Positions 4,029 through 27,336 of a stretch of DNA of 64,000 nucleotides are shown one piece after another. Source of the stretch: a bacterium (GTDB lineage: Bacteria > Patescibacteriota > Dojkabacteria > SC72); NCBI GenBank assembly GCA_021463465.1, contig JAJTYH010000002.1:201799-265798 (forward strand). The letters are read 5' to 3'. Numbering within the stretch: the stretch's first letter is position 1; each line of letters starts with the position of its first letter. A program made the translations under genes and the position numbers. The notes under the pieces are model-generated. The model made no database searches. It was not told where the DNA came from and was given only the letters and a program-made list of their open reading frames with translations.

Positions 4029-4251
4029 ATCAGAAATTCGATTTAGATTCTTGGCCATTGTTTTATTAGTGATATTTCACTCAAACCATAGGCTAATCGT
4101 CAAACTTCCTGGATTTCTTGGAACAATCCTGCTGTTTTACAGTTAACTTTTCGTCACGATTACGACTGTAACTGCTTTGCTCTATCATGTGCGTTATGTT
4201 TATACACTGACGCACCTGCGGTTACTTTTACATTAATGAGATATTTTAACC

Positions 4252-6958: not shown

Positions 6959-7069
6959 AACTTTCCCTACGTTTGAAATTTCTGTTGAAATAAAGAGTTA
7001 ATCCTTCTACTAAATACACCTTGCGTATATTCATTAGAAGAATCAGTGAAGATGCTGAAGAGTAGTGTT

Positions 7070-7096
7070 GCCCTGCGGCATTCGCAGCCGCAGGGC
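7070..7096. terminator. GC-rich perfect hairpin (10-bp stem, 7-nt loop) between convergent genes
   Basis: gccctgcggc-attcgca-gccgcagggc. Weak T-run (cacttttac) follows on the + strand. Sits at the left edge of the GC-rich segment. Confidence 0.45.
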
Positions 7097-7106
7097 CAGA
7101 ACACTT

Positions 7107-7739
7107 TTACTCAACCGAACAACCATCCAATTCTTCGCGGACCTCAGCCCATGCATCGACAAACGCCGTCACAAAAGCCTGAGGATCGCCTCCGTCAAAC
7201 TGAATAATTGTTGACATGGGGACATCCCAAGATGACATGAGACTCGTGTAGTGTGGAACGTAGGTTCCGACACACATGTAATGAGTCACCGACCTGGATT
7301 GAACCCATTGATGGTAGTCACGCATCGCAATAAATATCGATCTGTTTTCGGTGACACCGTCAACTGCACCCAGCTTCAGTTCCTCTTCGGCGAATTCACC
7401 CCACGAGACAACGAGTTGTCCGTTTCCCCACGGGATATACGCCTGGAACCAGGATCCGTGATCAATGGAATCAACGCCGTACGTGTCTGAGATGAAATCT
7501 TCAGTCCACGTATAAAATCTCGGCGTCGATGTATCTCCAACGACCGCATGTCCGTCTTCGTCAGTCCACTCAAGAACTTCTCCTGCCTTTTCGTGGCTGA
7601 CAACGTCAACCGCTGAACCTGACTCAGGCCCGGCGGCTTGGATTGAACCGTTAGGACGGAACGCCGTGAATACCAGAGCAATCGCTCCCACGAGTCCAAG
7701 TCCGAACAGAAATCCGAGTAACGTACTGTTTCGCTTCAT
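7107..7739 (-). CDS. Secreted/membrane-anchored hypothetical protein encoded by an anomalously GC-rich segment
   Basis: N-terminal hydrophobic signal/anchor (LLGFLFGLGLVGAIALVFTAF). Trp- and Asp-rich, no recognisable family. Local GC ~50% vs ~38% in flanks. Confidence 0.55.
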   Translation of the reverse strand: MKRNSTLLGFLFGLGLVGAIALVFTAFRPNGSIQAAGPESGSAVDVVSHEKAGEVLEWTDEDGHAVVGDTSTPRFYTWTEDFISDTYGVDSIDHGSWFQAYIPWGNGQLVVSWGEFAEEELKLGAVDGVTENRSIFIAMRDYHQWVQSRSVTHYMCVGTYVPHYTSLMSSWDVPMSTIIQFDGGDPQAFVTAFVDAWAEVREELDGCSVE

Positions 7740-7794
7740 ATGATCATCTCCTTGTTTGTAAGCGAATCTAACTTGATTTGTTTTTACCTATTTA

Positions 7795-7834
7795 CACCCA
7801 CTCAACTCTCTATAATTAAAGAGTTCAGTGGGTG
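7795..7834. promoter_or_regulatory. 15-bp inverted repeat with a TATAAT-like loop in a divergent intergenic region
   Basis: cacccactcaactct-ctataattaa-agagttcagtgggtg (one mismatch), between the start of the GC-rich gene (7739) and the next + strand gene. Confidence 0.4.
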
Positions 7835-8043
7835 AAACAGTTTTTCAAACCAATAAGTTCGCAAGGTGTAAAAATCATCTTCACTGATATATACCCGATA
7901 GTAGTAGATTAAAATCTTACTACCAAGTATTTTAAAAGATCAATCTAAATAAGAAATTCAGATCTGCACAATTATATAATAGGTGAGAAGGGGAAGTCAA
8001 TACTATAGGTTGTATGGCAGATGACAAATTGATATAATTGACG

Positions 8044-9201
8044 ATGGTTAATAATGCTAACACACAAGAAATTAATAGATTAAATGCGTTAAGGGAGCAA
8101 ATTACCTTTCCTATCGGAATGGATTCAGGAGAAATTTTGGATCAAGTACCTCAAGCAGAACAAATTTTAGCAGAGTTAGATGCTGGATTTGTTGAACTAC
8201 CTTCGCTTGATGAAGCCTTAAAGGCAAAACTTGGCGACAATGCGGAAAACCTTTTGAAAGCAGAAGGTTTTAGAGTGTTAGATATCAGAAACAATCAGTG
8301 CACATATCTATCTACCAAGAACCTCCCAAATGGCCGCAAAGAACTAAGGTCGCACTGGAAAAAACTCCTCAAAGAACTCCCAGAGGAAGCCTCTGTTAAG
8401 TCTATTGGTGATATTCTCCTAGTAACTCAGAGCGTTAAAGATGGAGTACTGACAAACAAACTTCATGTACTTGTAGATTTAAGAGAAAATGAATCAAGCA
8501 AAAAGGATGGGATAAGTCTATCAATACTTCAAGAGAAAGAAGACGGACATGTTTGGGATGTTAATAATTTGTACGGAATAAAGAGTAAAGTTTACTTGAA
8601 AAATAACGAACTGGTTTGGTTATTTATCAATCCATTTAAGTACTTTGGACGTATCGCCACAATTGATGGGAAAAATGTAATCCTAAACCGTTTATCACTT
8701 AATCCGGGGAGTCAAAGCTTCATTCCTGACATAGTCAAACATGAAAAGGTGCATATTAAACAGAGCTCAGAAGGAGTCCTTAAAATGGATGATGAGTTAA
8801 AGTTTGTTGCTTTTTCAATCCTTTTTCAAGATTTAGCCTCATTATCCTCACTTGCTGTTTTGATTCAACAAGGCTCACCTTGGCTATTTATGGCAAGTCT
8901 CACTGCAGCTTTAGCACTGTATATTCGTTCTAGACAAAAAGGAACTCCTTTGAACAAAGGACTGAGTAAACTACTAGCTGTTGAGGCAGAAGCATACTTT
9001 TCTTCTATTGCACACGAAAGAATTCTTAGAGATAAAGGGTATGTTGCAAGTAAACCTATACTACAACCCAAAGAGTATGCTAAACAACTTTCTTTATACC
9101 AACCTCTCACTTGGCTTTTGATCCAGAAAATTCATGAGCTTTTTACTAGGCGGAAGATAACAGCTGCTCCCTTACCGGCTACAGGATATTCTTTGAGTTA
9201 A
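8044..9201 (+). CDS. Hypothetical protein with an HExxH motif and C-terminal hydrophobic helices
   Basis: The ORF track starts on TTG at 8038; the first ATG is at 8044. VKHEKVHIKQ (HExxH) is followed by two predicted TM helices. No confident family. Confidence 0.4.
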   Translation: MVNNANTQEINRLNALREQITFPIGMDSGEILDQVPQAEQILAELDAGFVELPSLDEALKAKLGDNAENLLKAEGFRVLDIRNNQCTYLSTKNLPNGRKELRSHWKKLLKELPEEASVKSIGDILLVTQSVKDGVLTNKLHVLVDLRENESSKKDGISLSILQEKEDGHVWDVNNLYGIKSKVYLKNNELVWLFINPFKYFGRIATIDGKNVILNRLSLNPGSQSFIPDIVKHEKVHIKQSSEGVLKMDDELKFVAFSILFQDLASLSSLAVLIQQGSPWLFMASLTAALALYIRSRQKGTPLNKGLSKLLAVEAEAYFSSIAHERILRDKGYVASKPILQPKEYAKQLSLYQPLTWLLIQKIHELFTRRKITAAPLPATGYSLS

Positions 9202-9266
9202 AAGTCATTGACTCCCTACTAAAGAAATGCTTAAGTATATGAGTAAATAAATTTTGTCTCTGCCCA

Positions 9267-9614
9267 ATGGATATAGCGCAAATCAACGCTTTACTCGATT
9301 CACTAGAGGATTTGTTTAATAAAGCCGATGAAACTATTGTAAAACCTGAGAATAAGGTTTTTGTATTGGCCGGAATCTCAAACCTGAGAGATAATCCAAC
9401 TTCTGAAGAATTAGAAGGTTTCTTAGATGTGATAAAAGCTTACGCAACGCTCCCAAGCGAACAGCTTAACGCTATATCTGCCCAAGAATCACATGCAACT
9501 CAGCCACAAGTACCTTCACAAACAGCTGACGACAGTTTAGCGCAGGATCAAGCCAGACTTAAAGAATTACTTGAAAAGTTAAATAAATTAAATCAAAGCG
9601 CAGTTCAGGAGTAG
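9267..9614 (+). CDS. Small acidic hypothetical protein
   Basis: 115 aa, D/E/Q-rich, coiled-coil-like C-terminus. Immediately upstream of the giant ORF. Confidence 0.4.
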   Translation: MDIAQINALLDSLEDLFNKADETIVKPENKVFVLAGISNLRDNPTSEELEGFLDVIKAYATLPSEQLNAISAQESHATQPQVPSQTADDSLAQDQARLKELLEKLNKLNQSAVQE

Positions 9615-9691
9615 GCGAGAATACTCTTGTGCAATTTAGCAGAAAAACTTATATTAGTTGGTAATAACGAGTAAATTAAAAGTATTTTGTT

Positions 9692-10153
9692 ATGTTAAAA
9701 ATGCCAGATGTGTCAGTATTATCCCAAGATATTTTCCAGCTTTTAGGTATGGAAGCATTGGATGAAGTTGAGAAAGAGAAGTTTATGAACGATTTTTTGA
9801 ATTCAGTTTCAAAACAATTTTTCATTTCAAAGATTTTACCTTTCCTCAGTAATGAAGAAAAAGATAACTTATCTGACAAATACGAGAATTTGGATCAAAC
9901 AACTCTTCCAACTTTATTTGGTGAACTTTCAGAAAAGATTCCTAATATCGCTGATCTATATGTTGAATCCTTGAGAGAAGTCAAAGCGAAGCTTGTTACA
10001 GACACATACATCAACAAATCAGATATGCTTGAAGACTTAATTGCAAAAGAGAGTGACTCAGGTAAGGCTTCAGATTTGCGTGAGCAGTATGATTTATGTC
10101 AAAAAAACCTATCTTACGCACAAAACGGAAGATTCGATTTGATAACTAATTAA
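9692..10153 (+). CDS. Small acidic hypothetical protein
   Basis: 153 aa, acidic, helical. Stop lies 18 bp before the giant ORF's ATG. Confidence 0.4.
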   Translation: MLKMPDVSVLSQDIFQLLGMEALDEVEKEKFMNDFLNSVSKQFFISKILPFLSNEEKDNLSDKYENLDQTTLPTLFGELSEKIPNIADLYVESLREVKAKLVTDTYINKSDMLEDLIAKESDSGKASDLREQYDLCQKNLSYAQNGRFDLITN

Positions 10154-10171
10154 TATTTTTTATTGGAAAAC

Positions 10172-13100
10172 ATGTTAGCAGCACCTGGACGAGGAGAACT
10201 ACCAAGCTTTGAAAATCTAAATATTTCTCCAGAGAGCGCTGAAGAGTTAGGGAGAGATTTACGTAAAACTTTAGAGGCACTTGTAACTGGTTTCACTGGT
10301 GACTCTGGAGCAGCAAAAAAACTTCTCGAGAGTATGCTTGACCCGCAAAAAGAGCAAGCAGAGGGAAAAGTTCCAGAACGAACTAATGCTACACCTCTTT
10401 TGTCTGAGCAAAAGGGTGTGAAAAAGGTAGATAATGGACTTGAAATTGAAATTACTTCACCTGCGGTCAAGGAAGCTTTCATTGGCCCAAATGGGCGATC
10501 ATTGACAGAAGATATGTTCCAAGTCATCGCAGGAAGAGAAACGCAGGTAAGTGCCGCAGGTAAACCAGGAAATCTAAACTCGGGTCTTAGTGAAGTTAAA
10601 TCTGTCACTTTAGGCGGTGCCAATGTGAAGACAGGCTTTGATAGGTTAGAGCTTTCTAAAGGTGGTGATAAAGGATCTCCAAATGGTAACGAAGTTCTTA
10701 CTTTTGTAAAATTAGATCCAGAGGGGAAACCTGACCCAAAGAAGTCTGTCTCGATAAGAATTGAGAGAACTCAAAACGATACTAGTGGCATCCCTGATTC
10801 CAAAGTAATACTTTCCTTGGGCCTCCAAGAGACAAGTAACGCTATTACAGATAGTATTGGTAATATTCCAACGCGTTTATCACAAGTTGAATATTTACTG
10901 AAATTCAAACCGGATTTATCACTACAAGAAAAGGATGATTTGTCGGCCGAAGCCGCTTTGTTACGCGAACAGACAGTAACGGGTTTAAATGCAGAATCAA
11001 GACAAGCAAACCAGGCCTTGCTTTTTAAGGATTTGGCCTCAATTATTGCAATCGCTCGAGAAAGAGGACATTCAGTAACGTCTAGAGCTTCAATGGCTGA
11101 TTCAAATGAATCTGTTAGCTCAAGACAGTTTCAGGCTTTAGAAGTTTTCAATAGAATTATTGAGACACCTGGCTCTTTGATTAATCGATCAAAAAAAGCG
11201 GAGAAAAGAAGTGGAGACGTATCTGAAGATCAGAAGCTTTCCGACCTGAAGAGTTTTATAAATAAAGTTAGAGCCGATAGTAATGGAGAAGTTCCTGACC
11301 AAACGCCCAGGCAGGAAGTTCCAACTCCGTTAGGCGGTGAGTTGCAAACTAGCAATACTAAAAAGGAAGCTCCAAAGTCTATTGATGAGCTGAAGAAAGA
11401 TTTTGAAGGTGAACTCTCAGCAATTAAGGACTTGAGAAAGCGAAAAGAAGACTTAGAAGCAGAAATAAAAGCACTTAGTTCTGCTGATGCAGGAACCCTC
11501 TCCGTTGAAGAGAAAAAGAAACTTGAGTCTCTACAGAAGGACCTAGACGAGACAAAGCGCGGGTTAGAAATCTTAAAATCGCTTGGTGACATACAACTAT
11601 TTGACAGGAAAAAAAGTCTCAGAGATAAACTCAAAAACAGATTTCAGGATGAAATTGATTCTAGTACTGTCCTTACCCCTGAACAAATATCAAAACTCTC
11701 AGTTTCAGACTTACTTAGAATTCTTACCTTAAATGCCCAATACGCTAGCAAGAAAGATTCTACACCTGAAACAGCTGAAAAGGACAAACAGAATCTAGAC
11801 AAAATCAACGCTCTTATTGGTTTAGTCAATAGCTTCTCTGAAGCAAACCCTAATGCAGTAAAAGAGAGTAAAGGAAAAGATAAAAAGAAAGCAATCGACT
11901 TACTCACTGAGTGGTTAACTGCAAGAGAAACATCCCTAAGTACTGAAATTGACAAGCTCAACACAGCAGGAGCAACACTTGAAACAACTAACAAAGAGAG
12001 GGAAGAGAAGCTTGCAGCTTTGAAGAAGGAACTCGAGAAATTAGATGTTGATTTTGCAGCTACGCAATTAAAGGCAGCAAGTAGCTTAAGATCTCTTGGC
12101 GATCAAATCCCAACTGATGAATGGATCAAGTTAAGCAGCGCGCTGCATGAAGCTTCATTTGGTGATTTGCCAGAGAACCCCGAAGACACAAAAACAAAGA
12201 CTGAAGCCGCCGCCAATGCTTCTATCGCTTCAAATTGCCTTAGACATATTGATTTAGAGCTTGAGCAACGAATTGAGCCTGAAACTTCTAAGGTTAAGAA
12301 GTTCTTTAAACGAGCAGCTGAGGTACTTACATCTGTATTCGGTGGTATAGCCGCTCGAACAGCAGTTAAAGCTATAATAACTGGAACCCTAGGTTTAGCA
12401 CTTGGCGGTCCAGCAGGCTTATTGCTTGGTGGTGTTGCAGGGGCCTTGGCTGGAGGTGCTTCGAGTGCAATATTTAGTACTTGGATGCATTACAAGGTTT
12501 TCCACAACGACAAACTGCATGCGTTATATGCAGAGAATGCGAATCCTGGCAAATATGATTTCTTCAGATCTAGAATATTTGATAAGGCTAATGAGACTTA
12601 TGGTGTTAAAGCTCGAATCCAAAACATTGCAACCGTATACAATCAATTACTTTCGGGTCAACTAAAAGCCGATCAGTTAACACCTGATTTAGCTAAGACA
12701 GTACTGTCGGTTGTCAAAGACGCCAAGATGCTTAAAAACACCACCAATTTCATTGGTGTAAATAATCTAGGACTCGATGCGAATCTTTTCAAAAATGCTG
12801 CGGGTGAAACGGTTTTACCAGAAGATGCTTTACGAGATTTTGCTTTGAAATTTGATAATTTTGTCAACAACTCTATAAATGCAGGAAAATTAAACACTGA
12901 CGAAGTTTCAAAAGCACTTAGTGAAGCTGACAGTGAATCTAAGACAATGGTTAATGCAATGATAGCTTCAGCTTCTTGGACCAAATTCTTTAAAGGTGCT
13001 CTAATCGGAGGTGCTTCAGGCTTAATCGCACAAGGAATAGGAAATGCCCTCGAAGGAAAGGGCTTCTTAGGAACAGAAACTGGTGGGGTGACAAACTCAG

Positions 13101-15400
13101 CTGTAGGTTCAGTCACAGAATCACAAATGTCTGATGCAGATGTTTTGAAATTTAATGAAGAAGCTATGAAACGATTGGCTCCATACGGACAACAACAAGT
13201 AGCTCTCTTGCATCAAAACTACAGTAATGTTCCCGAAGCAGACTTACAAAAGATGTTTACCCAATTTGATGTAAATGGTAATGGAATACTTGAAGGCACT
13301 GAAGCAAATGCTCTAGTAGATTCACTTAATCAGTCAGGCTCAACTGGAGGTGTACCTACGTTAGTTGGTGCATGGGACGCACCTTATGATGGAAATATTT
13401 CAAAAGATGTACCACCTGAGTGGGTAGATACTTGGACCAAAGCAATCTACAATGTGGGTCGAGGACATGATTTCCATGGAGCTCAGTTTAGTATGCAGGG
13501 TGCTCCTGGAGGCGACTATTACGCTCTAGGACGGGCTTTAGATTACATGTCAAAGCATGTGCCAGCAGAGAGTATGAATACTCCCGAGGCTGGAATTTCG
13601 GTCTCCCATCTTTACGGCCACTTATTACTTGGAGGCCAACCAACCGATGCTCAATTAGCTGAATTCTTGACCAGGGTTGATGCCAAATATGAAGGTACAG
13701 ATTATGATATAAGCAAGATATTTACAGGTTCAGGTGAAGCAGTAACATCTTCTACAACCAATTCATCTGCATTGATTGCAGGAATGAACCAAATCACAAC
13801 GGCGGCCCAAAATGATGTAATGACTCTTTGGTCATCAATGGCTGAGAGCCCAACTATAACTGAGACAGTAAGCAACTCAGTGGCTAATTTTGTTGTTGAT
13901 ACCACAAAAGGTATAAATGAACTTGGCACTTCAGGTGCATTGGCAGGAATGGGTGTTTCTATGTGGCTAGCAAATATGTACACACCTGAGAATAGAGAGT
14001 ATGCCAAGGTGAAAGAGGCTGGCAAAGAAGGAGATAAGTCCGGTACACCTCCAGCAAATCAACCGGGAAATAGTTCAACTTCTGCAGGCTCAACAACACA
14101 AAAGGCAAATAACACACCTGGTAGTAACTCTGCAGACCAAACAGTTGAGACAGCAAACCGAAACAGTGGTCTTACAGATATCTCAGCCGCAAGTGCAAAA
14201 CAAGGAAGTGAATTGAAACCTTTTGGTAAAATTGAGTCTGCAGGAGTAGGCCTTTCTGCTGATAGTGAGAATACTAATCCAAATGTGGTAAATATTAATG
14301 CAGCAAACGGAAGATTTGTGGCATCAACCCCAGTATGGGTTAAGTCGCAAACAGGAAATGTCTCACAATTTGCCTACAGGCATCCAAGATTGGCTGAACT
14401 CTACAAAGAAGTTCTTTATATCGGCAATTTCATCAAACAATACGCCAAAACAACTGTTGGAATGAATAATGATCCTTTTGAGGCCCAAGTACTTGCAGAT
14501 ATTACAAAGTCAGTAGCTGCAAATGATAAGTATGCAGTAAGGAGACACGATGGAGGGGCCGTAAGCGTTGCGAGTTCACAGGTATATAACCTTGATCCCT
14601 ACAGAGCAAGAAAAAATGAACTCACGGCTGGACAAAACTTAAGAGAATTAAATGAAAGTGTTCGCCAGCCATTGGCCAAATTCGTCAAGAAAATGCTTGA
14701 GGTTGAATTTGGTGCAGGTGGATTAGGTCAGCAACACTTAGGTGATATTGATAGGGGAGTTCTTGATCTTTACATGAAGGATGGCGGCGAGAAATATATT
14801 AATAATGAGCAAGTACACGCATTCTTAGCTCTGCTTATGGTGTTGAATGATCCTGAAAATATGGAACCTAAATCCAAGTTCCTAAATCAAAAAGGTACAC
14901 AAGAATTCAATGGAATTGTAAATGTAATGATCTCTAGAGAGAGCGCATGGATGTCAATGTTATCACCAAAACTAAACGGCCAAAATTACCTAGGCTCAGC
15001 ATTCTTAGTGTCTGACGGAATTATTAGATCTGCACTTGAAATGAGCGGATATAATGTAAAGCCAGACCAAAGAGAAGCCCGACAGTACTTTACAAACGTG
15101 GATCAAATTGCGAGATCAGTAGCGTTGGTTAAAGGAGGCTCACCGTATAGTAATGCTCTGCAGTTAGTAAATCTTGCTAATCAAAACGGGGTAGAGTACT
15201 TCGCTCTAATGCGCGAAGCCACAGCAAAGGCACGAGCAGAAAAGAAAGGAAAGAAGAAAAAGCAACAGCAACAGCTAAATGATGCCGTAAGTGCAGTCCC
15301 AACAGTTACACCACAACCTGGCGAGGCCTTGCAAGATGAACCAGCACGTGAAGCAGTAGTAGTTGGAACGAACGAGCCAGCAGGTACAGATGAGATCTAA
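10172..15400 (+). CDS. Giant (1742-aa) multidomain protein with a coiled-coil region, a glycine-zipper membrane segment and a canonical EF-hand
   Basis: The track ORF begins on TTG at 10163; the first ATG is at 10172. Long heptad/KE-rich stretch (~aa 380-640). GxxxG-rich hydrophobic segment TGTLGLALGGPAGLLLGGVAGALAGGASSAIF. EF-hand loop DVNGNGILEGTE flanked by helices. Lys/Gln-rich C-terminal tail. Confidence 0.7.
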   Translation: MLAAPGRGELPSFENLNISPESAEELGRDLRKTLEALVTGFTGDSGAAKKLLESMLDPQKEQAEGKVPERTNATPLLSEQKGVKKVDNGLEIEITSPAVKEAFIGPNGRSLTEDMFQVIAGRETQVSAAGKPGNLNSGLSEVKSVTLGGANVKTGFDRLELSKGGDKGSPNGNEVLTFVKLDPEGKPDPKKSVSIRIERTQNDTSGIPDSKVILSLGLQETSNAITDSIGNIPTRLSQVEYLLKFKPDLSLQEKDDLSAEAALLREQTVTGLNAESRQANQALLFKDLASIIAIARERGHSVTSRASMADSNESVSSRQFQALEVFNRIIETPGSLINRSKKAEKRSGDVSEDQKLSDLKSFINKVRADSNGEVPDQTPRQEVPTPLGGELQTSNTKKEAPKSIDELKKDFEGELSAIKDLRKRKEDLEAEIKALSSADAGTLSVEEKKKLESLQKDLDETKRGLEILKSLGDIQLFDRKKSLRDKLKNRFQDEIDSSTVLTPEQISKLSVSDLLRILTLNAQYASKKDSTPETAEKDKQNLDKINALIGLVNSFSEANPNAVKESKGKDKKKAIDLLTEWLTARETSLSTEIDKLNTAGATLETTNKEREEKLAALKKELEKLDVDFAATQLKAASSLRSLGDQIPTDEWIKLSSALHEASFGDLPENPEDTKTKTEAAANASIASNCLRHIDLELEQRIEPETSKVKKFFKRAAEVLTSVFGGIAARTAVKAIITGTLGLALGGPAGLLLGGVAGALAGGASSAIFSTWMHYKVFHNDKLHALYAENANPGKYDFFRSRIFDKANETYGVKARIQNIATVYNQLLSGQLKADQLTPDLAKTVLSVVKDAKMLKNTTNFIGVNNLGLDANLFKNAAGETVLPEDALRDFALKFDNFVNNSINAGKLNTDEVSKALSEADSESKTMVNAMIASASWTKFFKGALIGGASGLIAQGIGNALEGKGFLGTETGGVTNSAVGSVTESQMSDADVLKFNEEAMKRLAPYGQQQVALLHQNYSNVPEADLQKMFTQFDVNGNGILEGTEANALVDSLNQSGSTGGVPTLVGAWDAPYDGNISKDVPPEWVDTWTKAIYNVGRGHDFHGAQFSMQGAPGGDYYALGRALDYMSKHVPAESMNTPEAGISVSHLYGHLLLGGQPTDAQLAEFLTRVDAKYEGTDYDISKIFTGSGEAVTSSTTNSSALIAGMNQITTAAQNDVMTLWSSMAESPTITETVSNSVANFVVDTTKGINELGTSGALAGMGVSMWLANMYTPENREYAKVKEAGKEGDKSGTPPANQPGNSSTSAGSTTQKANNTPGSNSADQTVETANRNSGLTDISAASAKQGSELKPFGKIESAGVGLSADSENTNPNVVNINAANGRFVASTPVWVKSQTGNVSQFAYRHPRLAELYKEVLYIGNFIKQYAKTTVGMNNDPFEAQVLADITKSVAANDKYAVRRHDGGAVSVASSQVYNLDPYRARKNELTAGQNLRELNESVRQPLAKFVKKMLEVEFGAGGLGQQHLGDIDRGVLDLYMKDGGEKYINNEQVHAFLALLMVLNDPENMEPKSKFLNQKGTQEFNGIVNVMISRESAWMSMLSPKLNGQNYLGSAFLVSDGIIRSALEMSGYNVKPDQREARQYFTNVDQIARSVALVKGGSPYSNALQLVNLANQNGVEYFALMREATAKARAEKKGKKKKQQQQLNDAVSAVPTVTPQPGEALQDEPAREAVVVGTNEPAGTDEI

Positions 15401-15431
15401 CTTTGGCTTTTTAAAAGTTTTAGGATCGAAA

Positions 15432-15457
15432 GGGGGCTAGCACATAGCTCCCTTTTT
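15432..15457 (+). terminator. Rho-independent terminator after the giant ORF
   Basis: gggggcta-gcaca-tagctccc (8-bp stem with one G-U pair) followed by TTTTT. Confidence 0.7.
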
Positions 15458-15461
15458 GATA

Positions 15462-15491
15462 TTGACAAAGTCTCCAGACCTATAGTATAAT
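15462..15491 (+). promoter_or_regulatory. Consensus sigma70-type promoter (TTGACA-18 bp-TATAAT)
   Basis: ttgaca at 15462-15467 and tataat at 15486-15491, with an 18-bp spacer. Drives a ~170-nt leader ahead of the GC-rich ORF at 15666. Confidence 0.6.
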
Positions 15492-15565
15492 ACACTCGTA
15501 ATATCTTAGAATATTACAATCTGCTCTTTTAAAATGCAGTACGATAATAAGATTTCTGTGAGAGC

Positions 15566-15618
15566 CAACTAACCAATATTGTTATTAATCACCTATTGAT
15601 ACCACTATTGGTTAGTTG
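15566..15618 (+). promoter_or_regulatory. 13-bp perfect inverted repeat in the 5' leader (operator or RNA stem)
   Basis: caactaaccaata ...27 nt... tattggttagttg, between the promoter and the SD (aaaggagg, 15651-15658). Confidence 0.45.
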
Positions 15619-15665
15619 TAATATCCAAAATCTTCAAGTGCCAAACACCACAAAGGAGGTCGTCA

Positions 15666-16084
15666 TGGCAGGTTTCTTTAGTTCGGTTTGGAATACGCTC
15701 ACGGGACGCGGTAAGGAGTCGCAATCAATGCAATTCATGCGTGAAACCGGAGCGGGTCAAGGGGACATTCGGGTGGCACGAGCAGCTCTCATTGACGCGG
15801 TCAACGCGGCGTGCATTGAGCTTGATATCGTTCTCAAACCCGGTGGAACCCAGGTAATCGAGAAGGCAATCCTTGAAGCTGTCGACCCAGGGTCGATCCA
15901 AAATCTTCAGCTTCTCCAGAGGATGCGCTCCATGGGAGTCTTAAACACTGGCATGATGATGCAATCGCCAACTCCAGCGATGGACCCAACAATGATTGCG
16001 CAAATCGTCAACCAGGTGATGGACGCTCGTGAAGCCGCCAAGCTCACCCAAACAGACCGGCCCCAAAAATCAGACGAGGTGTAA
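15666..16084 (+). CDS. Small hypothetical protein in a GC-rich (~55%) self-contained cassette
   Basis: Strong SD AAAGGAGG 7 nt upstream of the ATG at 15666; the track ORF start at 15596 lies inside the leader. Own promoter and terminator. No recognisable domain. Confidence 0.6.
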
Positions 16085-16112
16085 CAACCGAGTCAGCGTA
16101 CTGCATTCCCGT

Positions 16113-16141
16113 GGGGAAGCTCTCTTTTAGAAAGCTTCCCC
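16113..16141 (+). terminator. Rho-independent terminator
   Basis: ggggaagct-ctcttttagaa-agcttcccc, a perfect 9-bp stem, followed by a gttttgtgttt T-rich run. Confidence 0.65.
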
Positions 16142-16198
16142 CGGGTGTACGTTTTGTGTTTACATATATCAATATGTTTAGTATTTTTATATGTAAGT

Positions 16199-17425
16199 AT
16201 GAAATCACCTACTCACGAGAGTACAAACAAAAACCCTCGCCATATTGAGAAAATAGGGTTAAAAGCTGAAGCAACAGAAAGTTCACCAAACATCGAGACG
16301 GGACTAAGACTTTTAGGATCTGGTTTTGAAGGCGATACTTATGAATACAGGGCGAGAGATGGAAGTATTAAAGCCATAAAGGTTTTCAGACCTCGTGGGA
16401 AGGTATGGGATGACAACTATCATCAAGAGTTTGATGCTGCAGACCCAAACGACCCGAGAGAATTATCCAAAACAATATTTCGTGCAGCACATACAGCGAG
16501 ATGGGCAGATCGAATACAACATCCAGCACATCTGATTGAGGAGATTAACAAGCTCGATGACGAACTAATGGCGACAGGATCGAGTGCGTATAATATTCGA
16601 ACTCTACAAGAATCCTTTGCTAGGGTAGGTGATTTGAACACTAATGGCTTTAGAAATTATTTAACCCAAAGAGCATTAGCCCTGGGACAAAGGATTTTTG
16701 TTCCTGAAATAAATATTGACCCAAATTTCAAAGGTGGATTAGGCTCAGCGATTAATCGTTTAGTCGAATGGACAAGTACTAATTATCCTCAATTACAGCT
16801 GCCTAAAAGAATATTTCCCAGATTCATACAATTTGGAAAGTTTCCTGAAGACTATCCAAATCTTAAAGTCGCTGGAAGAGAGTATTTAGTTATGGAGAAA
16901 GTGCACTTGATTCTTGGTGACTATATAGAAAAGACTCAATCCAAAATACTTTCAATGGGCAGTATTTTATCTGATAGCCCTGAAATAGCTCAAGTTCAAC
17001 CCCTCCCAATCTCGATTCAACAGATTGCCGGAACTAGAACGAATCTAGAAATTTTAGCTTCTCTAGGATTAACCTTTGGTGATTTAAAATTGGGTAACAT
17101 AGCCTTTGACGCAGACAACACTCCAATTCTCATTGACCCCACTGCGGTGCTCAAAACTGGAAGTATCCAAGATATTGCTACTATGGACTACCTCCCTCCA
17201 CATGTTCAAGCACAAGTAAGAATGATGCAACCAATCAAGGGAGATCCTCAAAACGATATTTATGCTTTAAATCGAATACTTTCTATTATACAGCAGGAAT
17301 GGATGCAGGCTGTAATGCAAGGACTAAGAAAGAATACGCGTAATATAATGCATGATGAGAGGGTTGGGACAGAAACAGCCTCAACAATGCTTCAAAACTC
17401 AAGAAGAAATCAAAATACATTATAA
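16199..17425 (+). CDS. Protein-kinase-like (PKL) superfamily protein, atypical
   Basis: Track start is GTG at 16145; the first ATG is at 16199. LGSGFEGDTYEY (GxGxxG loop) with AIK lysine 14 aa later. FGDLKLGNIAF resembles the HRDLKxxN/HGDxxxGN catalytic loop; IDP may be the DFG-equivalent. The spacing between the Lys and the catalytic loop is unusually long. Confidence 0.45.
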   Translation: MKSPTHESTNKNPRHIEKIGLKAEATESSPNIETGLRLLGSGFEGDTYEYRARDGSIKAIKVFRPRGKVWDDNYHQEFDAADPNDPRELSKTIFRAAHTARWADRIQHPAHLIEEINKLDDELMATGSSAYNIRTLQESFARVGDLNTNGFRNYLTQRALALGQRIFVPEINIDPNFKGGLGSAINRLVEWTSTNYPQLQLPKRIFPRFIQFGKFPEDYPNLKVAGREYLVMEKVHLILGDYIEKTQSKILSMGSILSDSPEIAQVQPLPISIQQIAGTRTNLEILASLGLTFGDLKLGNIAFDADNTPILIDPTAVLKTGSIQDIATMDYLPPHVQAQVRMMQPIKGDPQNDIYALNRILSIIQQEWMQAVMQGLRKNTRNIMHDERVGTETASTMLQNSRRNQNTL

Positions 17426-17429
17426 AAAG

Positions 17430-19346
17430 ATGAGAAACTTTATCAAACCAACAATCCAAAGTTTATTGGAAAATATCTTCGAGAAATCTCAGCTTAAACA
17501 AATCCGTGAATTTGCTGAAAAAGAGCCTCTACTCAATCTAAAAACTCAAAAAACCGTATTTCCGGGTTCAAAGGAGACAGGAAAAGAAAATGTTGTACTG
17601 CCAGAAGTTGAGGTAACAACAAATCTTCCATTAAGTCATGACAAATTGCTACTAAACTCCACAGGGCAAAATGAGTGGCGAAGAGCTATTGGCTTTAGTC
17701 CATTGAATACACCTCAAACCAGAGAACGCATTGATAAGGGAGCAATGGTTATGGTTGTGAAATCAAAGGATGTCACAGCAATTGGAGTTAACCGACCCTC
17801 CACGCTAACATATCATCTTCCGCAAGATGCAAGTGCTATTTCTATTATGGAAGTTGACGGTGAATCAGTAATTGGTCTCCAGGTGGCAGATGGTACGACA
17901 TTCTTGGAGCTTGGAGATACAGAAATTCAAGCATGTAAGAGGCCGATTACAGGTGGAGATAAAATTACAAATCGCACTTCAAAAGTTCATTGCGATAGTG
18001 ATAGATGGGCGCACTTTGTTGCAAGAACTTCTGCGACAATAGGCTTACAAGGAGCTCAAAAGGGTTCAGGAACAATCAAAGGGATCTCGGAGAGTGACAG
18101 AGATAAGCTCGTGGAAGAAAATGGGGTTGGATCTTCAACCGCGCAATCATTATCAATTAAACGTACTGAAAAAGGTTATCATGCTCAAATAGTTGGGACA
18201 GGGGCAGAAAGAGATTTTGGCCAAATCTTCGTTGGGACTGACAAAAGAGCTGACCAGCTTGCACTTCTACCAAATATGGAAAATATTAGCCCCATGAATT
18301 CTAGCTCAAGGGTGCTTGGACTGGTTGGGAGGGAGCGGCTAATCCAACCAACTTTGGATGCCGATTTCGAAGCGGGCACTGCTTTTATTCTGACCTCTGA
18401 CGGTTTTTCACTAAAAAGTCCTCAAATAGGAGAGCTTTTAATCGATTATGCAAAAAACAAAACATCGGAACAGATTATACAAATTCTTCAAGACGCAAAA
18501 ATGCTTGATCTATTATTTGCGCACCCAGATGGAAAGAGACCCGCAAAAGACGATGGAACTCTTTGGTTAGTACTCCTTAACGACCAGGAAAAAGCTCAGT
18601 CTGAAGTTAATCAAAACTTACTCTTAGATGATTTACTTCATAAGGCCAAAGCTCTGTCAAACCTTTTTCCCAAAGCAGCAGAACAGATAAATAGAAGATT
18701 AGAAGAAATAAGGGCTCTTACTGATGAGATACTTCAATGGGTGGAATCAAGAACAAGTGACAGTGTAAGTGTAAATGATTTAAAAGATATTCAAAAAGCA
18801 ACTGAACAGGCCTTAGCAGCTGAAGCAGAACAAAAGGAACTAGAAAAAGAACTGGAATTAGTAAATGAAAGCAAAGTTCTTTTACAACATCATACCCTTA
18901 GTAATCAATATTACTCTGCGGCAATGCTAGATACAGTCGTATCGTTACGCAATGTTATAGGAACTGGAGAAGTTACGAGTAAAATTCTAGCGGAGTGCAT
19001 AGCTACTATTTCATCCGCCTTAAATGGTAACAAGAATATTAAAATTACCAATCAAAAACTCGTAAAGGTTGTTTTCGACGAGTTACTCGAAAAGAGACTA
19101 GCAATAACTAAAGAAGAGAAGTTTTTTGAAACTTTGACCAAATGGATTCAAGATCCTTCACAAGAAAATACTAAGGCTCTGAAATCGCAAATAAGTATTT
19201 CTCTTCCTCATTTAAATTCACTCACTCGCATAATACATAGCGAAGAAGATCAATTTAAAACTAAAGAGTACTTGTATTACTTAGAATATTCAAAAAAATT
19301 AGTACCTACTTGGAAAAACTTAGTAAATACCAAAATTAACGACTAA
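17430..19346 (+). CDS. PP2C-like phosphatase-domain protein with a C-terminal coiled-coil
   Basis: Track ORF begins at 17352, overlapping the upstream gene; an in-frame ATG at 17430 follows that gene's stop. AFILTSDGFS (LASDG-like motif) and DDGTLWLVLL (DD.TVIVV-like terminal motif). A long helical/KE-rich tail follows. Confidence 0.4.
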   Translation: MRNFIKPTIQSLLENIFEKSQLKQIREFAEKEPLLNLKTQKTVFPGSKETGKENVVLPEVEVTTNLPLSHDKLLLNSTGQNEWRRAIGFSPLNTPQTRERIDKGAMVMVVKSKDVTAIGVNRPSTLTYHLPQDASAISIMEVDGESVIGLQVADGTTFLELGDTEIQACKRPITGGDKITNRTSKVHCDSDRWAHFVARTSATIGLQGAQKGSGTIKGISESDRDKLVEENGVGSSTAQSLSIKRTEKGYHAQIVGTGAERDFGQIFVGTDKRADQLALLPNMENISPMNSSSRVLGLVGRERLIQPTLDADFEAGTAFILTSDGFSLKSPQIGELLIDYAKNKTSEQIIQILQDAKMLDLLFAHPDGKRPAKDDGTLWLVLLNDQEKAQSEVNQNLLLDDLLHKAKALSNLFPKAAEQINRRLEEIRALTDEILQWVESRTSDSVSVNDLKDIQKATEQALAAEAEQKELEKELELVNESKVLLQHHTLSNQYYSAAMLDTVVSLRNVIGTGEVTSKILAECIATISSALNGNKNIKITNQKLVKVVFDELLEKRLAITKEEKFFETLTKWIQDPSQENTKALKSQISISLPHLNSLTRIIHSEEDQFKTKEYLYYLEYSKKLVPTWKNLVNTKIND

Positions 19347-19406
19347 TTTACTTGTCCATACCACAAGAGTATAATCCCTCAATAATTACAAAAAACAATT
19401 AAAGTT

Positions 19407-21011
19407 ATGGCACCAAGACCCATAACTGCCCCACTAGAATTAGTTTCCCAGTTAGAGCAATTCAAAGAACACACACGTAATGGTGAAGATTTAACTGCAG
19501 AAGGTTTGACTACAACAATAAAAGCTTTTTCAAAAGCTATAAAGGTTGGATTTGAGGGTGCATCTGAATTCCTTTCAGAAGAAGCTGAACTTTCAAGAGA
19601 TGAGTTTTTCGCGGAGTATGTGCACTGGAGCGACAATGTTTTAGCCCTGGCCTTAAAACAAAAAGGAATAGACAGAGTTCTGGTTTCCACTCCAACGGGA
19701 ATTCAGGGCGCCGGTAAAGGAACATACGGTGACACTCTTCAAGTACTTGCACAGGAACTTGTCGAAGAAATGGCGTCTGGACAACCTAAAAAATACAAAC
19801 AACTGGTTACTCAACCTGACGCAATCACAGAGAAATGTGTTGCCCGAGCGAGATCACAAGAAGTAAAAACGGGTACAGGAGGAATTTTTAACCATAAAAA
19901 CACAAGATCTGAGATAACTACAGACGAAGAACGCGAATATTTCGATCTCTTCAATGATATGAAAAATGCAATGGGTGCTGCAAAGGGCGTTTTTGTAGAG
20001 AACAATATTGTAGCCATTGCATTAAACCTTTATATGGCATTAAAAGTAATGCAGAATGAGGAAGGTATAAGTTCATTCAATATCGACCTCTATCCAAGAT
20101 CTCAGCGTCAGATTGAACTTTTAGAACAGACAACTGGAACACTCCAAGACAACGGGATAGTCCTTGAACATAGCACTATTGATTTTAAACTCCTCAATGA
20201 AGAACAGGTCCAACAGTTACTAAGATACAAAAACAGCGCTCTTGCAATTCTCCCAAAGGTACAAGAAGGTTTTACAACTGTAATTAAAAGGGTCGAAGAA
20301 GTATTTAGAAGCCACTCAGATGATTACACCTTTGATGAACTACGAAAAGATCTGACCGGTATTATAATGAGTGCTTCAGAAGGCGAAACTGATGCAATGA
20401 GAGCAGCTGAGTTGATGCTAAATGAGTGTTTAAGTGCAGCAAATAGAACAGAAAAACGTGGCAAAGAGTCCAAACGACCAGACGATCGTCCAATACCACT
20501 CCTAAAACGATTAAAAGATTACTTTGCCAAGTCATTTGCCATACCATTCCTATTCGAAAACCCTATGATGTTTGCCACAGACTACAAACCCGAAGAGGTT
20601 GCAAGAAAAGTCTTTTGTAAGTATTTCAGTATTGAACATTCTGCACCAGAACTTCAAAATGGCGGTAAGTACTATGATCTTTACAGAAGATACCAATACT
20701 TAGCCGCATGCAAAGTGTATGGAGAGTTTAAAGGTGACTTAGAGCTCAGACAAATAAAAAGGGAAAAGCCTGATTCAACTGAGTTGATTTACTGGGGAGA
20801 AGCTGGGAATGTAATATTTTATTCGTTCATTCAAAAACCTGGTGGTAACTCAGTTATGTACACAATAGGACATAAAGGAACTACTTTTACAGAAGATATC
20901 CCAGGATTAGCTAATACACTTAAGCTAGAAATTCCACAAACCCAAACAATTGCTGAGTTTATTGAGAATAATCCTCCACTTTGGTATCAACTAGAAGGTA
21001 TCTTCATTTAA
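19407..21011 (+). CDS. P-loop kinase-like protein (GxxGxGKGT Walker A, adenylate/nucleotide-kinase-like)
   Basis: STPTGIQGAGKGTYGDTL P-loop; the rest is unrecognised. Convergent 8-bp overlap with the integrase. Confidence 0.45.
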   Translation: MAPRPITAPLELVSQLEQFKEHTRNGEDLTAEGLTTTIKAFSKAIKVGFEGASEFLSEEAELSRDEFFAEYVHWSDNVLALALKQKGIDRVLVSTPTGIQGAGKGTYGDTLQVLAQELVEEMASGQPKKYKQLVTQPDAITEKCVARARSQEVKTGTGGIFNHKNTRSEITTDEEREYFDLFNDMKNAMGAAKGVFVENNIVAIALNLYMALKVMQNEEGISSFNIDLYPRSQRQIELLEQTTGTLQDNGIVLEHSTIDFKLLNEEQVQQLLRYKNSALAILPKVQEGFTTVIKRVEEVFRSHSDDYTFDELRKDLTGIIMSASEGETDAMRAAELMLNECLSAANRTEKRGKESKRPDDRPIPLLKRLKDYFAKSFAIPFLFENPMMFATDYKPEEVARKVFCKYFSIEHSAPELQNGGKYYDLYRRYQYLAACKVYGEFKGDLELRQIKREKPDSTELIYWGEAGNVIFYSFIQKPGGNSVMYTIGHKGTTFTEDIPGLANTLKLEIPQTQTIAEFIENNPPLWYQLEGIFI

Positions 21012-22281
21012 GCGGATGCTTATCTTTGTGAGTATCTGAAGCAAATTTGTCAGATGCATGCACATACCTTGTTGTTGTATTAAGGCTTTCATGACCTAAC
21101 AGGACTTGAATTGCAGCTGGATTAGCACCATTTTCAGCCAAATATGTAGCAAAGCCATGCCTCAGACTGTGAGCTGAAGTGGGAACTAAAATACCCAGTC
21201 TACGCCTATACTGCGCGATTTTCTCTTGAAAGTAGTTTGAAGATATTCGCATATTTTCTTTCTTTTTTCCTCTTCCAGAGAATGGAATAAACAGAGCAGG
21301 GGAGTCAAACTTCGTAAGGAAGTTATTTTTCCTAAAGTCTTCTACTAGAGCTATAAAACGGTAGGAGTGATTTCCATCAGAAACAGCGGCCATCAGCTCA
21401 GAGCCTTTCAATGTTTCACGCTCCGTGTCATGAATATGCTTTAAGCGCACTTCTAAATACTTATCTAACCAACTCATGGCCCTTGGTGTCATGTATACGA
21501 AACGTTGCTTTTTCCCTTTACCTAAAATAAAAAGCTTACCATCCAAATTTACTTGATCCAAGTTAAGGCCAATCAGTTCTGAAATACGCATACCTGTTGA
21601 AAAAAGTAGCTCTAGCATTGCACGATTGCGCACACTTACTTCATAATCCTTTTCAAATTCGCTCGGTGCTTCAATTAAGCTAATCAATTCATCCAGCTCA
21701 GCAACCTGAGACTTTTTCTTCTCAGCCTTAATTAGTTTAATTGCATCCGGCGCAATTGGAATTTCTAAATCTCTATCAATTCTAAATTTTAAATACGAAC
21801 GAATCGCAGATAACATTCGATTCACACTTCGAGCATCCAAACCCGTAGTCGACCTCGCGGAAGCGTTTTGGGGTTTGTTTGACATTCCCAGACTGCCAAA
21901 GACTTTTTTATATACATTATCGAGAAAACCAGGCTGATCCATAGGTGTTGTTAGAGCACCTGATACCTCTTCATCGCTTTTAGGGCCATCGTAGCCCGTC
22001 GCTGGACTTTGTACCGTACTATCAAGCTTTCTAAGACTTTCAGCTCTGAATTTATCCAAATCTTTCAAATGTTCGCCACTTCGAAGATAACCTTTATAAA
22101 TAGTAATCTCTTCTTTGGAGAGTTTAAGGAATTGGACATCTTTGAAATGTAAAAAGACTGCAAAGATAGATAGGTCCCTGGCATAGTTGAAGACTGTCTG
22201 CATACTGTAGTTATTATTCTGAAGATCTAAAAGGAATTTGTCCTGTTCTGGTAGCTTAGGGATTGTTATGTTTTTGGACAT
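21004..22281 (-). CDS. Tyrosine site-specific recombinase / phage-type integrase
   Basis: ARSVNRMLSAIRSYL (Arg I box) and HSLRHGFATYLAENGANPAAIQVLLGHESLNTTTRYVH (box II, HxxR...Y catalytic tyrosine). N-terminal SAM-like core-binding region. Confidence 0.9.
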   Translation of the reverse strand: MSKNITIPKLPEQDKFLLDLQNNNYSMQTVFNYARDLSIFAVFLHFKDVQFLKLSKEEITIYKGYLRSGEHLKDLDKFRAESLRKLDSTVQSPATGYDGPKSDEEVSGALTTPMDQPGFLDNVYKKVFGSLGMSNKPQNASARSTTGLDARSVNRMLSAIRSYLKFRIDRDLEIPIAPDAIKLIKAEKKKSQVAELDELISLIEAPSEFEKDYEVSVRNRAMLELLFSTGMRISELIGLNLDQVNLDGKLFILGKGKKQRFVYMTPRAMSWLDKYLEVRLKHIHDTERETLKGSELMAAVSDGNHSYRFIALVEDFRKNNFLTKFDSPALFIPFSGRGKKKENMRISSNYFQEKIAQYRRRLGILVPTSAHSLRHGFATYLAENGANPAAIQVLLGHESLNTTTRYVHASDKFASDTHKDKHPLK

Positions 22282-26502: not shown

Positions 26503-27336
26503 TCACTTCCAAAGCTCTCTATCGTAAAGAGCTAGAAACTCCCGATGTCTAGAACCTTTTGGCTGGTCACTATGAATCAATTGAACCCCGCTAGCGAGAT
26601 AAAGATAAGGAAGCATCTGTGAGTATTCCAAGTCAAAACGGGAAATATAAAGCCTATCCAGCCTTACTAACCTCTTACCCACTTCATACAAATTTCTGTA
26701 GAAAGTTGGTACATGACCCGGAGCATCCGAGACCACAGCCGTAACAGCCGTCATAGCTATATCTAAAAGATGATTACCCGAAAAGGCATCACTCCAATCT
26801 AAAATATAGATTCCGTTATCTTGATTAACAATTAAGTTTCCGTGATGGAAGTCCCCATGACACAAACAAACCTTATGAGGACGGCTTAGAGTCTCTAACA
26901 TTCTATCTTTCTCAACATCACTTAACTCCTTTGAAGCTTTAATCTCCGGACTGATTTTATCCCACTGTGAAAGAATATCTACTTCAATATTTGCAAGTGT
27001 TGAATGTGCCTCTGAGACTTTACGAACCACGTCAAAGTATGTCCAGGGTTTTCTCATCAATCCATTCATCAAAGACTCTCCAGTAACGAATTCAAAGATA
27101 ATGCCACGCTTACCTTCTGTCTGAATAAGTTCTAATGGTGTCGCGACGTTCAAGTCCCCTACCTTCGAGATTTTCAGAGTTTTCTCAAACTCTTCTGTTA
27201 TATAACTTTCGGGAACATCTGCGTTATACAGTTTGACTGACTCATTCTTACTGAAACGAAAAACAGTGGACCTACGACCGTGATCAATAATTGGAAGTTT
27301 ATCCAGTAGCTCCTTCGAATCTAAATACTTACTCAC
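26503..27336 (-). CDS. Phosphotransferase (APH/choline-kinase-like) family protein
   Basis: LCHGDFHHGNLIV (HGDxxxxN brace/catalytic loop) and ILDWSDA (metal-binding Asp). Confidence 0.7.
   Translation of the reverse strand: MSKYLDSKELLDKLPIIDHGRRSTVFRFSKNESVKLYNADVPESYITEEFEKTLKISKVGDLNVATPLELIQTEGKRGIIFEFVTGESLMNGLMRKPWTYFDVVRKVSEAHSTLANIEVDILSQWDKISPEIKASKELSDVEKDRMLETLSRPHKVCLCHGDFHHGNLIVNQDNGIYILDWSDAFSGNHLLDIAMTAVTAVVSDAPGHVPTFYRNLYEVGKRLVRLDRLYISRFDLEYSQMLPYLYLASGVQLIHSDQPKGSRHREFLALYDRELWK

Follow-up and report, generated by a model that had tools for sequence, protein, structure and literature searches.

We describe a GC-rich gene for an exported protein, referred to as X, on the minus strand of a 64,000-nt stretch of a Dojkabacteria genome (assembly GCA_021463465.1, contig JAJTYH010000002.1, positions 201,799 to 265,798), which is called the window hereafter. 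Our preferred explanation, to which we assign a probability of about 50%, is that X is a resident, self-contained surface-protein unit whose mRNA would be closed by pairing of its 5' and 3' ends and would combine a GC-rich coding sequence (CDS) with hairpins, probably for exceptional stability, so that its GC content is maintained. The whole analysis was performed in silico, and all statements on transcripts are predictions. Relative loci and lineages retrieved for comparison are designated L010 to L015, L033, and L129. The X unit is approximately 1 kb long, from about 8009 to 7001 on the minus strand, and its non-coding scaffold is far better conserved than the X protein. Its elements are as follows.

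8009-7971, minus strand: promoter, consisting of the CCTATAGT motif (8009-8002), the -35 element TTGACT (8000-7995), an 18-nt spacer, and the -10 element TATAAT (7976-7971)
7889-7964, minus strand: leader part 1, with hairpins H0 (~7964-7943) and H1 (~7927-7895) and the TCTTTTAAAATAC motif
7876-7888, minus strand: 5' box (IR-L), ATCAGTGAAGATG, the complement of IR-R
7792-7837, minus strand: leader hairpin H2, with 21-nt arms (7792-7812/7817-7837) that are 86% complementary
7748-7753, minus strand: Shine-Dalgarno sequence AAGGAG, 8 nt upstream of the ATG
7107-7739, minus strand: X CDS, 633 bp, 210 aa, exported protein, GC 0.512
7058-7108, minus strand: GC-rich hairpin (imperfect), with a perfect core at 7070-7096, directly after the stop codon
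7042-7054, minus strand: 3' box (IR-R), CATCTTCACTGAT, the complement of IR-L, which lies 822 nt further upstream on the transcript
7001-7043, minus strand: AT-rich hairpin that closes the X unit

The GC contents at the first, second, and third codon positions of X (GC1, GC2, and GC3) were 0.583, 0.441, and 0.512, respectively, whereas the window as a whole had a GC content of 0.395. GC3 of the remaining window genes ranged from 0.25 to 0.40 (about 0.33), apart from the gene for ribosomal protein L31 (0.467). In 300-nt windows (mean GC 0.395, standard deviation 0.036), just two peaks exceeded 0.50: one at X (0.543, +4 standard deviations) and one at 15546-15927 (0.553), which corresponds to a second GC-rich unit, cassette 2, described below. 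The X region lies 12 points above its surroundings with sharp boundaries, and the GC-rich portion of the unit is confined to the GC hairpin and the CDS, with an AT-rich leader. An earlier note on this DNA had pointed out the GC anomaly of X in low-GC surroundings, and both the recalculated GC and GC3 values and the windowed plot confirm it. The same note had asked for assembly support. Nine further assemblies, from at least eight sequencing runs together with the GenBank metagenome-assembled genome (MAG) GCA_020853275.1, were at least 99.96% identical to the window over both junctions and had the same orientation. Misassembly or chimerism of the X region is excluded because ten independent assemblies, including the window, share these junctions. 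Direct repeats flanking the X unit occurred at chance level only, no target-site duplication was visible, and no extra or silent copy of X was found within the 64-kb window. The nearest tRNA gene is 27 kb from the X unit.

Orthologues of X with 29-53% identity were found in six further low-GC lineages within the candidate phyla radiation (CPR) related to Dojkabacteria, and their neighbours are usually GT2 (cellulose-synthase-like) and GH26-like genes. The coding-region GC content was 50-55% in all seven lineages, and that of the flanks 28-49%. The values of GC/GC3 for X were as follows.

Window: X.512/.512, neighbouring genes.33-.41, window.395
L010: X.507/.510, flanks.36-.43
L011: X.530/.590, flanks.38-.41
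L012: X.536/.619, flanks.32-.35
L013: X.550/.643, flanks.45-.49
L129: X.533/.620, flanks.277

Synonymous sites should long be saturated between these lineages, because protein identities are just 29-53% for X and 38-51% for the GH26-like neighbour. The GC excess is thus old and actively maintained, since drift would have brought an imported gene to the composition of its host; X is thus best regarded as a long-standing resident and not as a recent import. The earlier note had proposed that X was acquired recently from a donor of higher GC content, with transfer from a host as a speculative option. A recent transfer of this kind, or an assembly chimera, might be suspected from the 12-point rise with sharp boundaries and from the GH26 neighbour, which has 40-45% identical homologues in high-GC Anaerolineae. 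We nevertheless consider it very improbable: the same anomaly is present in seven diverged lineages with flanks of 28-49% GC, the flanking AT-rich regulatory DNA has been co-inherited with X, and the ten assemblies agree. A search for high-GC relatives of the 210-aa protein, which the note had suggested, returned none among 1.84 billion representative proteins; the named wider relatives belong to Bacteroidota, and X is absent from the Anaerolineae loci that carry the GH26-like neighbour. Compared with recent genomic islands, X shares the deviant composition; donor-like relatives and mobility hallmarks at its borders were not found.

The GH26-like neighbour has a history of its own. Among species-representative genomes, its relatives were found in Ca. 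Dojkabacteria, WWE3, one Saccharibacteria, and many high-GC Anaerolineae. Homologues with 39-45% identity occur in high-GC Chloroflexota (L016-L032, Anaerolineae and Ardenticatenia MAGs) and are approximately as close as those of other CPR bacteria, which hints at an old exchange of this gene between Chloroflexota and CPR bacteria.

The gene order GT2(-) GH26(+) X(+) was observed in L011, L012, and L013, and GH26(+) X(+) in L010, GT2 being seen in those loci whose contig extends far enough; VanY(-) lies close downstream of X in L010 and L013. The same locus genes are present in the window, but X is located beyond the far side of GT2, unlike in the four relatives, so that the X unit has been relocated in this genome. 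The stretch that separates GH26 from VanY in this DNA (4029-4251) corresponds to the site of X in L010 and L013 and contained no promoter, box, or hairpin remnant.

The elements of the X unit occur in the same order in the lineages with sequenced flanks: promoter, leader of 140-260 nt, 5' box, CDS, GC hairpin, 3' box, and AT hairpin. The promoter is of the sigma-70 type and matches the consensus at 11/12 positions, and the arrangement CCTATAGT-TT(T/G)(A/C)CA-N17/18-TATAAT is also present in L010, L011, L012, L013, L015, and L129. RNAalifold analysis of leader part 1 on a five-lineage alignment predicted 25 pairs, five of them compensatory; H0 comprised seven pairs, of which none was broken and three were compensatory, plus G.U pairs. 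For the AT hairpin, RNAalifold on six lineages gave 12 pairs with an invariant G.U and compensatory changes. Because G.U pairs and compensatory changes occur in both, the results suggest that the leader and the AT hairpin are sense-strand RNA structures and that the transcript reaches past the 3' box. The AT-rich hairpin is likely the true 3' end or terminator. The GC hairpin, whose core GCCCTGCGGC / ATTCGCA / GCCGCAGGGC forms the 10-bp perfect stem described in the earlier note, with a 7-nt loop, was not called by the terminator scan, as no T-run follows it. A GC hairpin was present at this position in seven lineages; its sequences differ among the window, L010-L013, and L015, and that of L129 is close to the window. 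No Rfam match was obtained in the X unit at E ≤ 1, and L033 gave a chance match only. When metagenomes were scanned for a pattern of the 3' scaffold, the L015 type alone was recovered again.

Hairpin H2 had previously been taken for a putative palindromic operator within a repressor-controlled promoter. The inverted repeat does exist, with its 15-nt arms matching at 14 of 15 positions, not perfectly. It lies approximately 150 nt downstream of the conserved promoter, inside the 5' leader, and the TATAAT in its loop, which had been read as a -10 element, reads on the plus strand, the wrong strand for X. The predicted fold of the window leader had a minimum free energy of -46.6 kcal/mol (z -6.6). 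Six lineages were folded, and each showed a long stable hairpin at the H2 position (z -4.3 to -10.5) with sequences unrelated to one another. H2 fits an RNA structure better than an operator, because its position and shape are conserved and its sequence is not.

The two boxes flank the CDS as inverted copies. Their core, CAGTGAAGAT, occurs exactly twice in 64 kb, in inverted orientation on either side of the CDS, with 0.20 occurrences expected by chance. When the 260 nt upstream and the 130 nt downstream of 52 window genes were compared, the longest complements were 13 and 11 nt, and the other 50 genes gave 10 nt or less; the two genes with the longest complements are exactly the two GC-anomalous genes. 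The same box pair flanks the CDS in L010, L012-L015, and L129, each cassette locus containing the core exactly twice in inverted orientation, with L011 carrying a covarying variant, and the 3' box opens a 29-nt block that is identical in the window and L010. The complementarity is 13 nt in the window and 13-16 nt across the seven lineages. The 3' box contains CACTGAT in the window, L010, and L129. Its partner in the 5' box is ATCAG in the window and in L129, and the L010 helix is instead extended at the opposite end (GATGGT/ACCATC). In L012, L013, and L015, AGCAG is present in the 5' box and CTGCT in the 3' box. In L011, both sides carry a change at one core position (AGAGAAGATGGTGG / CCACCATCTTCTCT), and the helix includes a G.U. 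The register of pairing shifts from lineage to lineage. In the six-lineage alignment, 84% of cells pair, compared with 31-59% when the partners are slid; 6/17 box pairs are changed on both sides (compensatory), and the covariation score was reached by 1/500 shuffles. ViennaRNA folding of full-length transcripts gave box-pairing probabilities of 0.87-1.0 in five lineages carrying X or Y (the latter introduced below), with 0.94-1.0 in the window.

Inverted repeats around a gene may also indicate a DNA element. Under an invertible or recombinase-controlled switch, inversion of the segment of approximately 830 bp would uncouple the gene from its promoter and result in phase variation. Such a switch agrees with the perfect inverted repeats of 13-16 bp, which enclose the gene and leave its promoter outside, as in an inverton. 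It also agrees with the predicted location of the product on the cell surface, as surface proteins typically undergo phase variation, and with the presence of a tyrosine recombinase gene at 21004-22281. However, at the level of assembled sequence, only the ON orientation was found in ten assemblies and every related lineage, and the sliding register and the G.U in L011 are what RNA helices would show. The recombinase is XerC/D-like and scored below the family cut-offs, no adjacent invertase was found, and the three types of cassette described below have three unrelated box sequences. We regard a DNA switch as unlikely.

Units of similar architecture were found for genes unrelated to X. Cassette 2 is located in the window itself.

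15462-16141, plus strand: cassette 2 unit, just downstream of the gene for a 1745-aa protein
15462-15491, plus strand: near-consensus promoter, TTGACA-18-TATAAT
15533-15543, plus strand: 5' box, AATGCAGTACG, a perfect 11-nt complement of 16097-16107
15665-16084, plus strand: CDS for a 139-aa protein without a signal peptide or family match, GC 0.536, GC3 0.579
16097-16107 and 16113-16141, plus strand: 3' box, CGTACTGCATT, followed by the GC hairpin

The cassette 2 leader motif TCTTTTAAAATGC resembles the X leader, and the boxes pair with a predicted probability of 0.76-1.0. A further GC-rich exported protein, Z (218 aa), unrelated to the others, is encoded between GT2 and GH26 in L033 (Ca. Dojkabacteria MAG JBLGEO010000001.1, 4572-5740). 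Its GC content is.534 in a.35 GC genome, and its 5' and 3' boxes are perfectly complementary over 15 nt (ATACTAACTAACTAA). A GC hairpin is also present, and the leader, approximately 430 nt long, is itself partly GC-rich. For cassette 2 and Z together, the pairing probabilities were at or near 1.0 at most positions (range 0.45-1.0). The three cassette types (X, cassette 2, and Z) thus have three unrelated box sequences. Because these serve one architecture, pairing of RNA is a better account of the boxes than a single sequence-specific protein or recombinase.

A fourth gene was found by comparison of L010 with L015 (L015 7084-8215 vs L010 886-1900). The GH26 proteins of the two loci are 95.5% identical, and the DNA is 86.6% identical through GH26, the promoter, and the leader. 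This identity breaks off precisely behind CAGTGAAGATG, where the 5' box ends. In the same scaffold, L015 carries an orphan GC-rich lipoprotein, Y (GC.502), with 15-nt perfect boxes; X of L010 and Y of L015 are unrelated (hhalign probability 1%). These observations show that cassettes are occasionally replaced as well as relocated. The description of X as a self-contained cassette for an exported protein, given in the earlier note, therefore holds, for the unit has been moved to the other side of GT2, and L010 and L015 show that cassettes are exchanged. No family was assigned to the Y, Z, and cassette 2 proteins in Pfam and NCBIfam. The interval between the cassette and VanY also differs, with one 235-aa gene in L010 and open reading frames (ORFs) of 299 and 107 aa in L015, and the region from the cassette to VanY looks like a local variable hotspot.

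We tentatively extend our interpretation from X to a class, although we think it rather less than even odds that the extension is correct. Dojkabacteria-type CPR bacteria may possess an undescribed class of self-contained, interchangeable cassettes, mostly for surface proteins, in which the CDS is kept at 50-55% GC, irrespective of genome composition, by selection on the RNA and each mRNA forms a panhandle through its own 11-16-nt boxes with a GC hairpin cap. If this is true, such mRNAs would be compositionally insulated and nuclease-resistant. A different account, possible but in our view doubtful, is an exchangeable pool of foreign or mobile cassettes among Dojkabacteria, which would replace one another in a conserved scaffold through recombination at or near the boxes; the composition would then be that of the pool or of an ultimate high-GC source, kept by repeated replacement and not by selection on the RNA. 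This would explain why L010 and L015 are 86.6% identical in DNA outside and carry the unrelated genes X and Y inside, with the break right after CAGTGAAGATG; it also agrees with the relocation of the unit in the window and with Z as a third unrelated GC-rich gene elsewhere in the same locus (L033). The observed/expected ratio of CpG points in the same direction, being 1.0 in X and 1.0-1.1 in the GC-rich cassettes, compared with 0.66 in background genes, in which GpC is normal (1.07) while CpG is avoided. On the other hand, X has diverged approximately as deeply as the neighbouring gene and occupies the same locus in five lineages, and no donor was present among the 1.84 billion representative proteins. 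The conserved unit extends past both boxes to include the promoter, leader, and AT hairpin, and the box sequences vary by cassette type. No linked recombinase was found, the sole tyrosine recombinase of the window being Xer-like and 13 kb away; a target-site duplication was not visible, and scans of viral contigs (1 chance match and 91 chance matches, none with a box pair) yielded no copy.

We further examined why the CDS is GC-rich. Folding of the CDS relative to dinucleotide shuffles gave z values of -3.4 (window), -4.1, -2.8, -5.4, and -6.1 for five X genes, all below every one of 19 control genes (-2.4 to +1.9). Codon usage was compared with that of the L31 gene (38317-38682), which has a GC3 of 0.467, prefers C- and T-ending codons, and avoids A-ending ones, suggesting an expression-linked codon bias in this genome. 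The fraction of C in two-fold pyrimidine-ending codons was 0.58 and 0.61 in the two genes vs 0.35, and in four-fold boxes it was 0.29 in both vs 0.14. G-ending four-fold codons amounted to 0.23 in X vs 0.12, and to 0.11 in L31, and CGN arginine codons and CpG were raised in X, not in L31. If X were simply a very highly expressed gene adapted to a translational preference for G/C-ending codons, the rise of C-ending codons common to L31 and X and the strong promoter of X would be expected. The increase in G-ending four-fold and CGN codons and the loss of CpG avoidance in X, which L31, the sole ribosomal protein gene used as reference, does not share, are difficult to reconcile with this idea, as are the raised GC1 and GC2. 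Codon adaptation is thus an improbable explanation.

Under the preferred interpretation, transcription of X would start at the conserved sigma-70-type promoter and produce a transcript with a structured leader of approximately 225 nt, the GC-rich CDS, and the GC hairpin, ending at the AT hairpin. The 13-nt leader box would pair with the 13-nt box in the 3' untranslated region (UTR) to form an mRNA panhandle. The GC-rich, folded CDS and the terminal hairpins would leave few AU-rich single-stranded stretches and protected ends, and the expected outcome would be an mRNA of unusual stability, encoding a surface protein made in large amounts. The GC richness would then be a maintained property of the transcribed coding region, explained by selection for stability. 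It is more speculative that the composition is tuned for function at or in a higher-GC host cell.

Several results weigh against this interpretation. Although the X genes fold more strongly than the controls, Y (z -1.5), cassette 2 (-1.25), and Z (+0.2) showed no excess. Extra structure cannot be the general cause of GC richness because these three lack it; in the folding model, extra folding appears to be a property of X and not of the class, which would share the absolute stability conferred by GC content. The GC hairpin could end transcription before the 3' box is made, and removal of the 3' box had no consistent effect on how accessible the ribosome-binding site is predicted to be. The homology break at the end of the 5' box also fits recombination at the boxes. 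The absence of CpG depletion and the raised CGN and NNG codons in the cassettes also resemble foreign DNA. In addition, the identity patterns of X and GH26 are not clearly congruent, as the GH26 proteins of L010 and L013 are 51% identical and their X proteins 29%.

The N-terminus of the X protein is charged and precedes a hydrophobic helix of 21 residues, and the orthologues contain the lipoboxes LSAC and LTAC, with two Cys kept in most members. These features, read by eye and with no dedicated predictor, agree with the secreted protein proposed in the earlier note. The protein begins with a membrane helix or signal, which a disordered linker joins to an alpha/beta domain of approximately 145 aa. 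The AlphaFold model from seven sequences had a predicted local distance difference test score (pLDDT) of 75 overall and 80-97 in the domain. A Foldseek comparison of this model (pLDDT 75) with the PDB gave no significant match (best E 0.02, template modelling score <0.25). X had no match in Pfam or NCBIfam, a PDB sequence search gave E ≥ 0.13, and a peptide-pattern scan of genome contigs returned no match. A word-indexed search with X retrieved X itself and one 41% relative, and nothing else. In contrast, a profile search of the 1.84 billion representative proteins retrieved 39 relatives at E ≤ 1e-3, of which 31 were at E ≤ 1e-10. By sequence comparison, these relatives define an uncharacterised extracytoplasmic domain of approximately 130 aa, which occurs singly, in 2-4 tandem copies, or fused to Sde182_NH-like nucleoside-hydrolase (DUF1593), GH10, dockerin, or Laminin_G_3 modules. 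The named wider sources are Bacteroidota (Algoriphagus, Imperialibacter, and Prolixibacteraceae), in whose polysaccharide-degrading proteins the domain recurs. A closer subfamily (P0002, P0005-8, P0016, P0027, and P0037) has the motif W-x-DEDG-x-AVVGD-x-STPR in common, and most of its members have two conserved cysteines and an N-terminal signal with a lipobox. X is thus predicted to be an exported, usually lipid-anchored protein of a family associated with polysaccharide-active modules.

Other features of the window were also noted. Eight consecutive genes without a Pfam match (387, 115, 153, 1745, 139, 426, 664, and 534 aa) occupy 8038-21011. This block is bounded by the XerC/D-like tyrosine recombinase gene (21004-22281, minus strand), the product of which has an N-terminal extension. 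The eight genes might form an island or, alternatively, a module for surface structures or secretion that is specific to CPR bacteria. At 27329-29893, a gene encodes an 854-aa protein with weak matches to TrwB/VirD4-type coupling proteins and HerA/DUF87 ATPases, possibly a component of type IV-like machinery for secretion or DNA uptake.

A local deviation in GC content is routinely read as recent transfer. That of X survives divergence to 29-53% identity in genomes of 28%-49% GC, and X provides a clean natural case for studying what holds the composition of a gene off the mutational equilibrium of its genome. The deviation, the complementarity of the 5' and 3' UTRs, and the terminal hairpins coincide in every case, giving a testable hypothesis of mRNA closure and stability. 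To our knowledge, the phylum is without genetics, and almost no post-transcriptional regulation has been described in it. The conserved envelope locus, with GT2, a GH26-like gene, and a variable exported protein, may shape the cell surface of these episymbionts.

Among known systems, phage morons are autonomous promoter-gene-terminator units of deviant composition, which is attributed to recent acquisition. The X unit resembles them in that one gene, equipped with a promoter and a terminator, lies among unrelated genes and has a composition unlike that of its neighbours; it differs in that its deviation persists through deep divergence, its context is chromosomal, and the viral-contig scans gave no copy. 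Integron and mobile insertion cassettes are also single-gene units with inverted repeats, with unrelated genes found in the same slot of close relatives. Unlike these, the X unit has its own conserved promoter, its conserved part extends past the repeats, and no target-site duplication is visible. No IntI was found in the window, where the best integron-integrase score was 69 bits against a cut-off of 265, and no attI/attC consensus was seen, attC being inspected by eye.

The vls locus of Borrelia appears to be the closest compositional precedent. This surface-lipoprotein locus has approximately 49% GC in a genome of approximately 28.6% GC in all strains and is inferred to be under strong selection, and its inverted repeats are always present while their sequence is not conserved (PMC11499132). 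Both systems comprise GC-rich surface-lipoprotein genes in an AT-rich genome. However, vls has arrays of silent cassettes, a GC skew of 0.52, and segmental gene conversion, whereas the units described here have a skew of 0.01-0.14, repeats that flank the whole transcription unit, and no silent copies in 64 kb. Gene conversion of the vls type was considered for X and rejected, as no extra or silent X copies are present in this 64 kb.

In the hok family of type I toxin mRNAs, the two ends pair through the fbi and tac elements. Similarly, the 3' UTR of the Staphylococcus aureus icaR mRNA pairs with its 5' UTR (PMC3868564). The complementarity of two ends of one mRNA, which is a regulatory device in those systems, is common to them and the X unit. 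In both of them, the ribosome-binding region is covered by the 3' element and translation is repressed, whereas in the units described here a distance of 60-180 nt separates the 5' box from the Shine-Dalgarno sequence downstream of it. An equivalent translational switch finds no support in X, since the predicted accessibility of the Shine-Dalgarno sequence showed no consistent change on removal of the 3' box.

In the Bacillus subtilis hbs mRNA, a 14-bp interaction that joins the 5' UTR to the 3' UTR modulates cleavage by RNase Y (PMC5737220). Like the X mRNA, the hbs mRNA is monocistronic, has a highly structured 5' UTR, and encodes an abundant small protein, the abundance of X being presumed. 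The hbs gene is not compositionally anomalous, and its pairing was shown by experiment, whereas that of X is predicted. Furthermore, the pairing described here recurs in several unrelated genes, always with a GC-rich CDS and a GC hairpin. The predicted end pairing of the X mRNA would place it with the hbs and icaR type of mRNAs with complementary 5' and 3' UTRs, and by this analogy the hbs mRNA appears to be the closest experimental precedent for the X unit.

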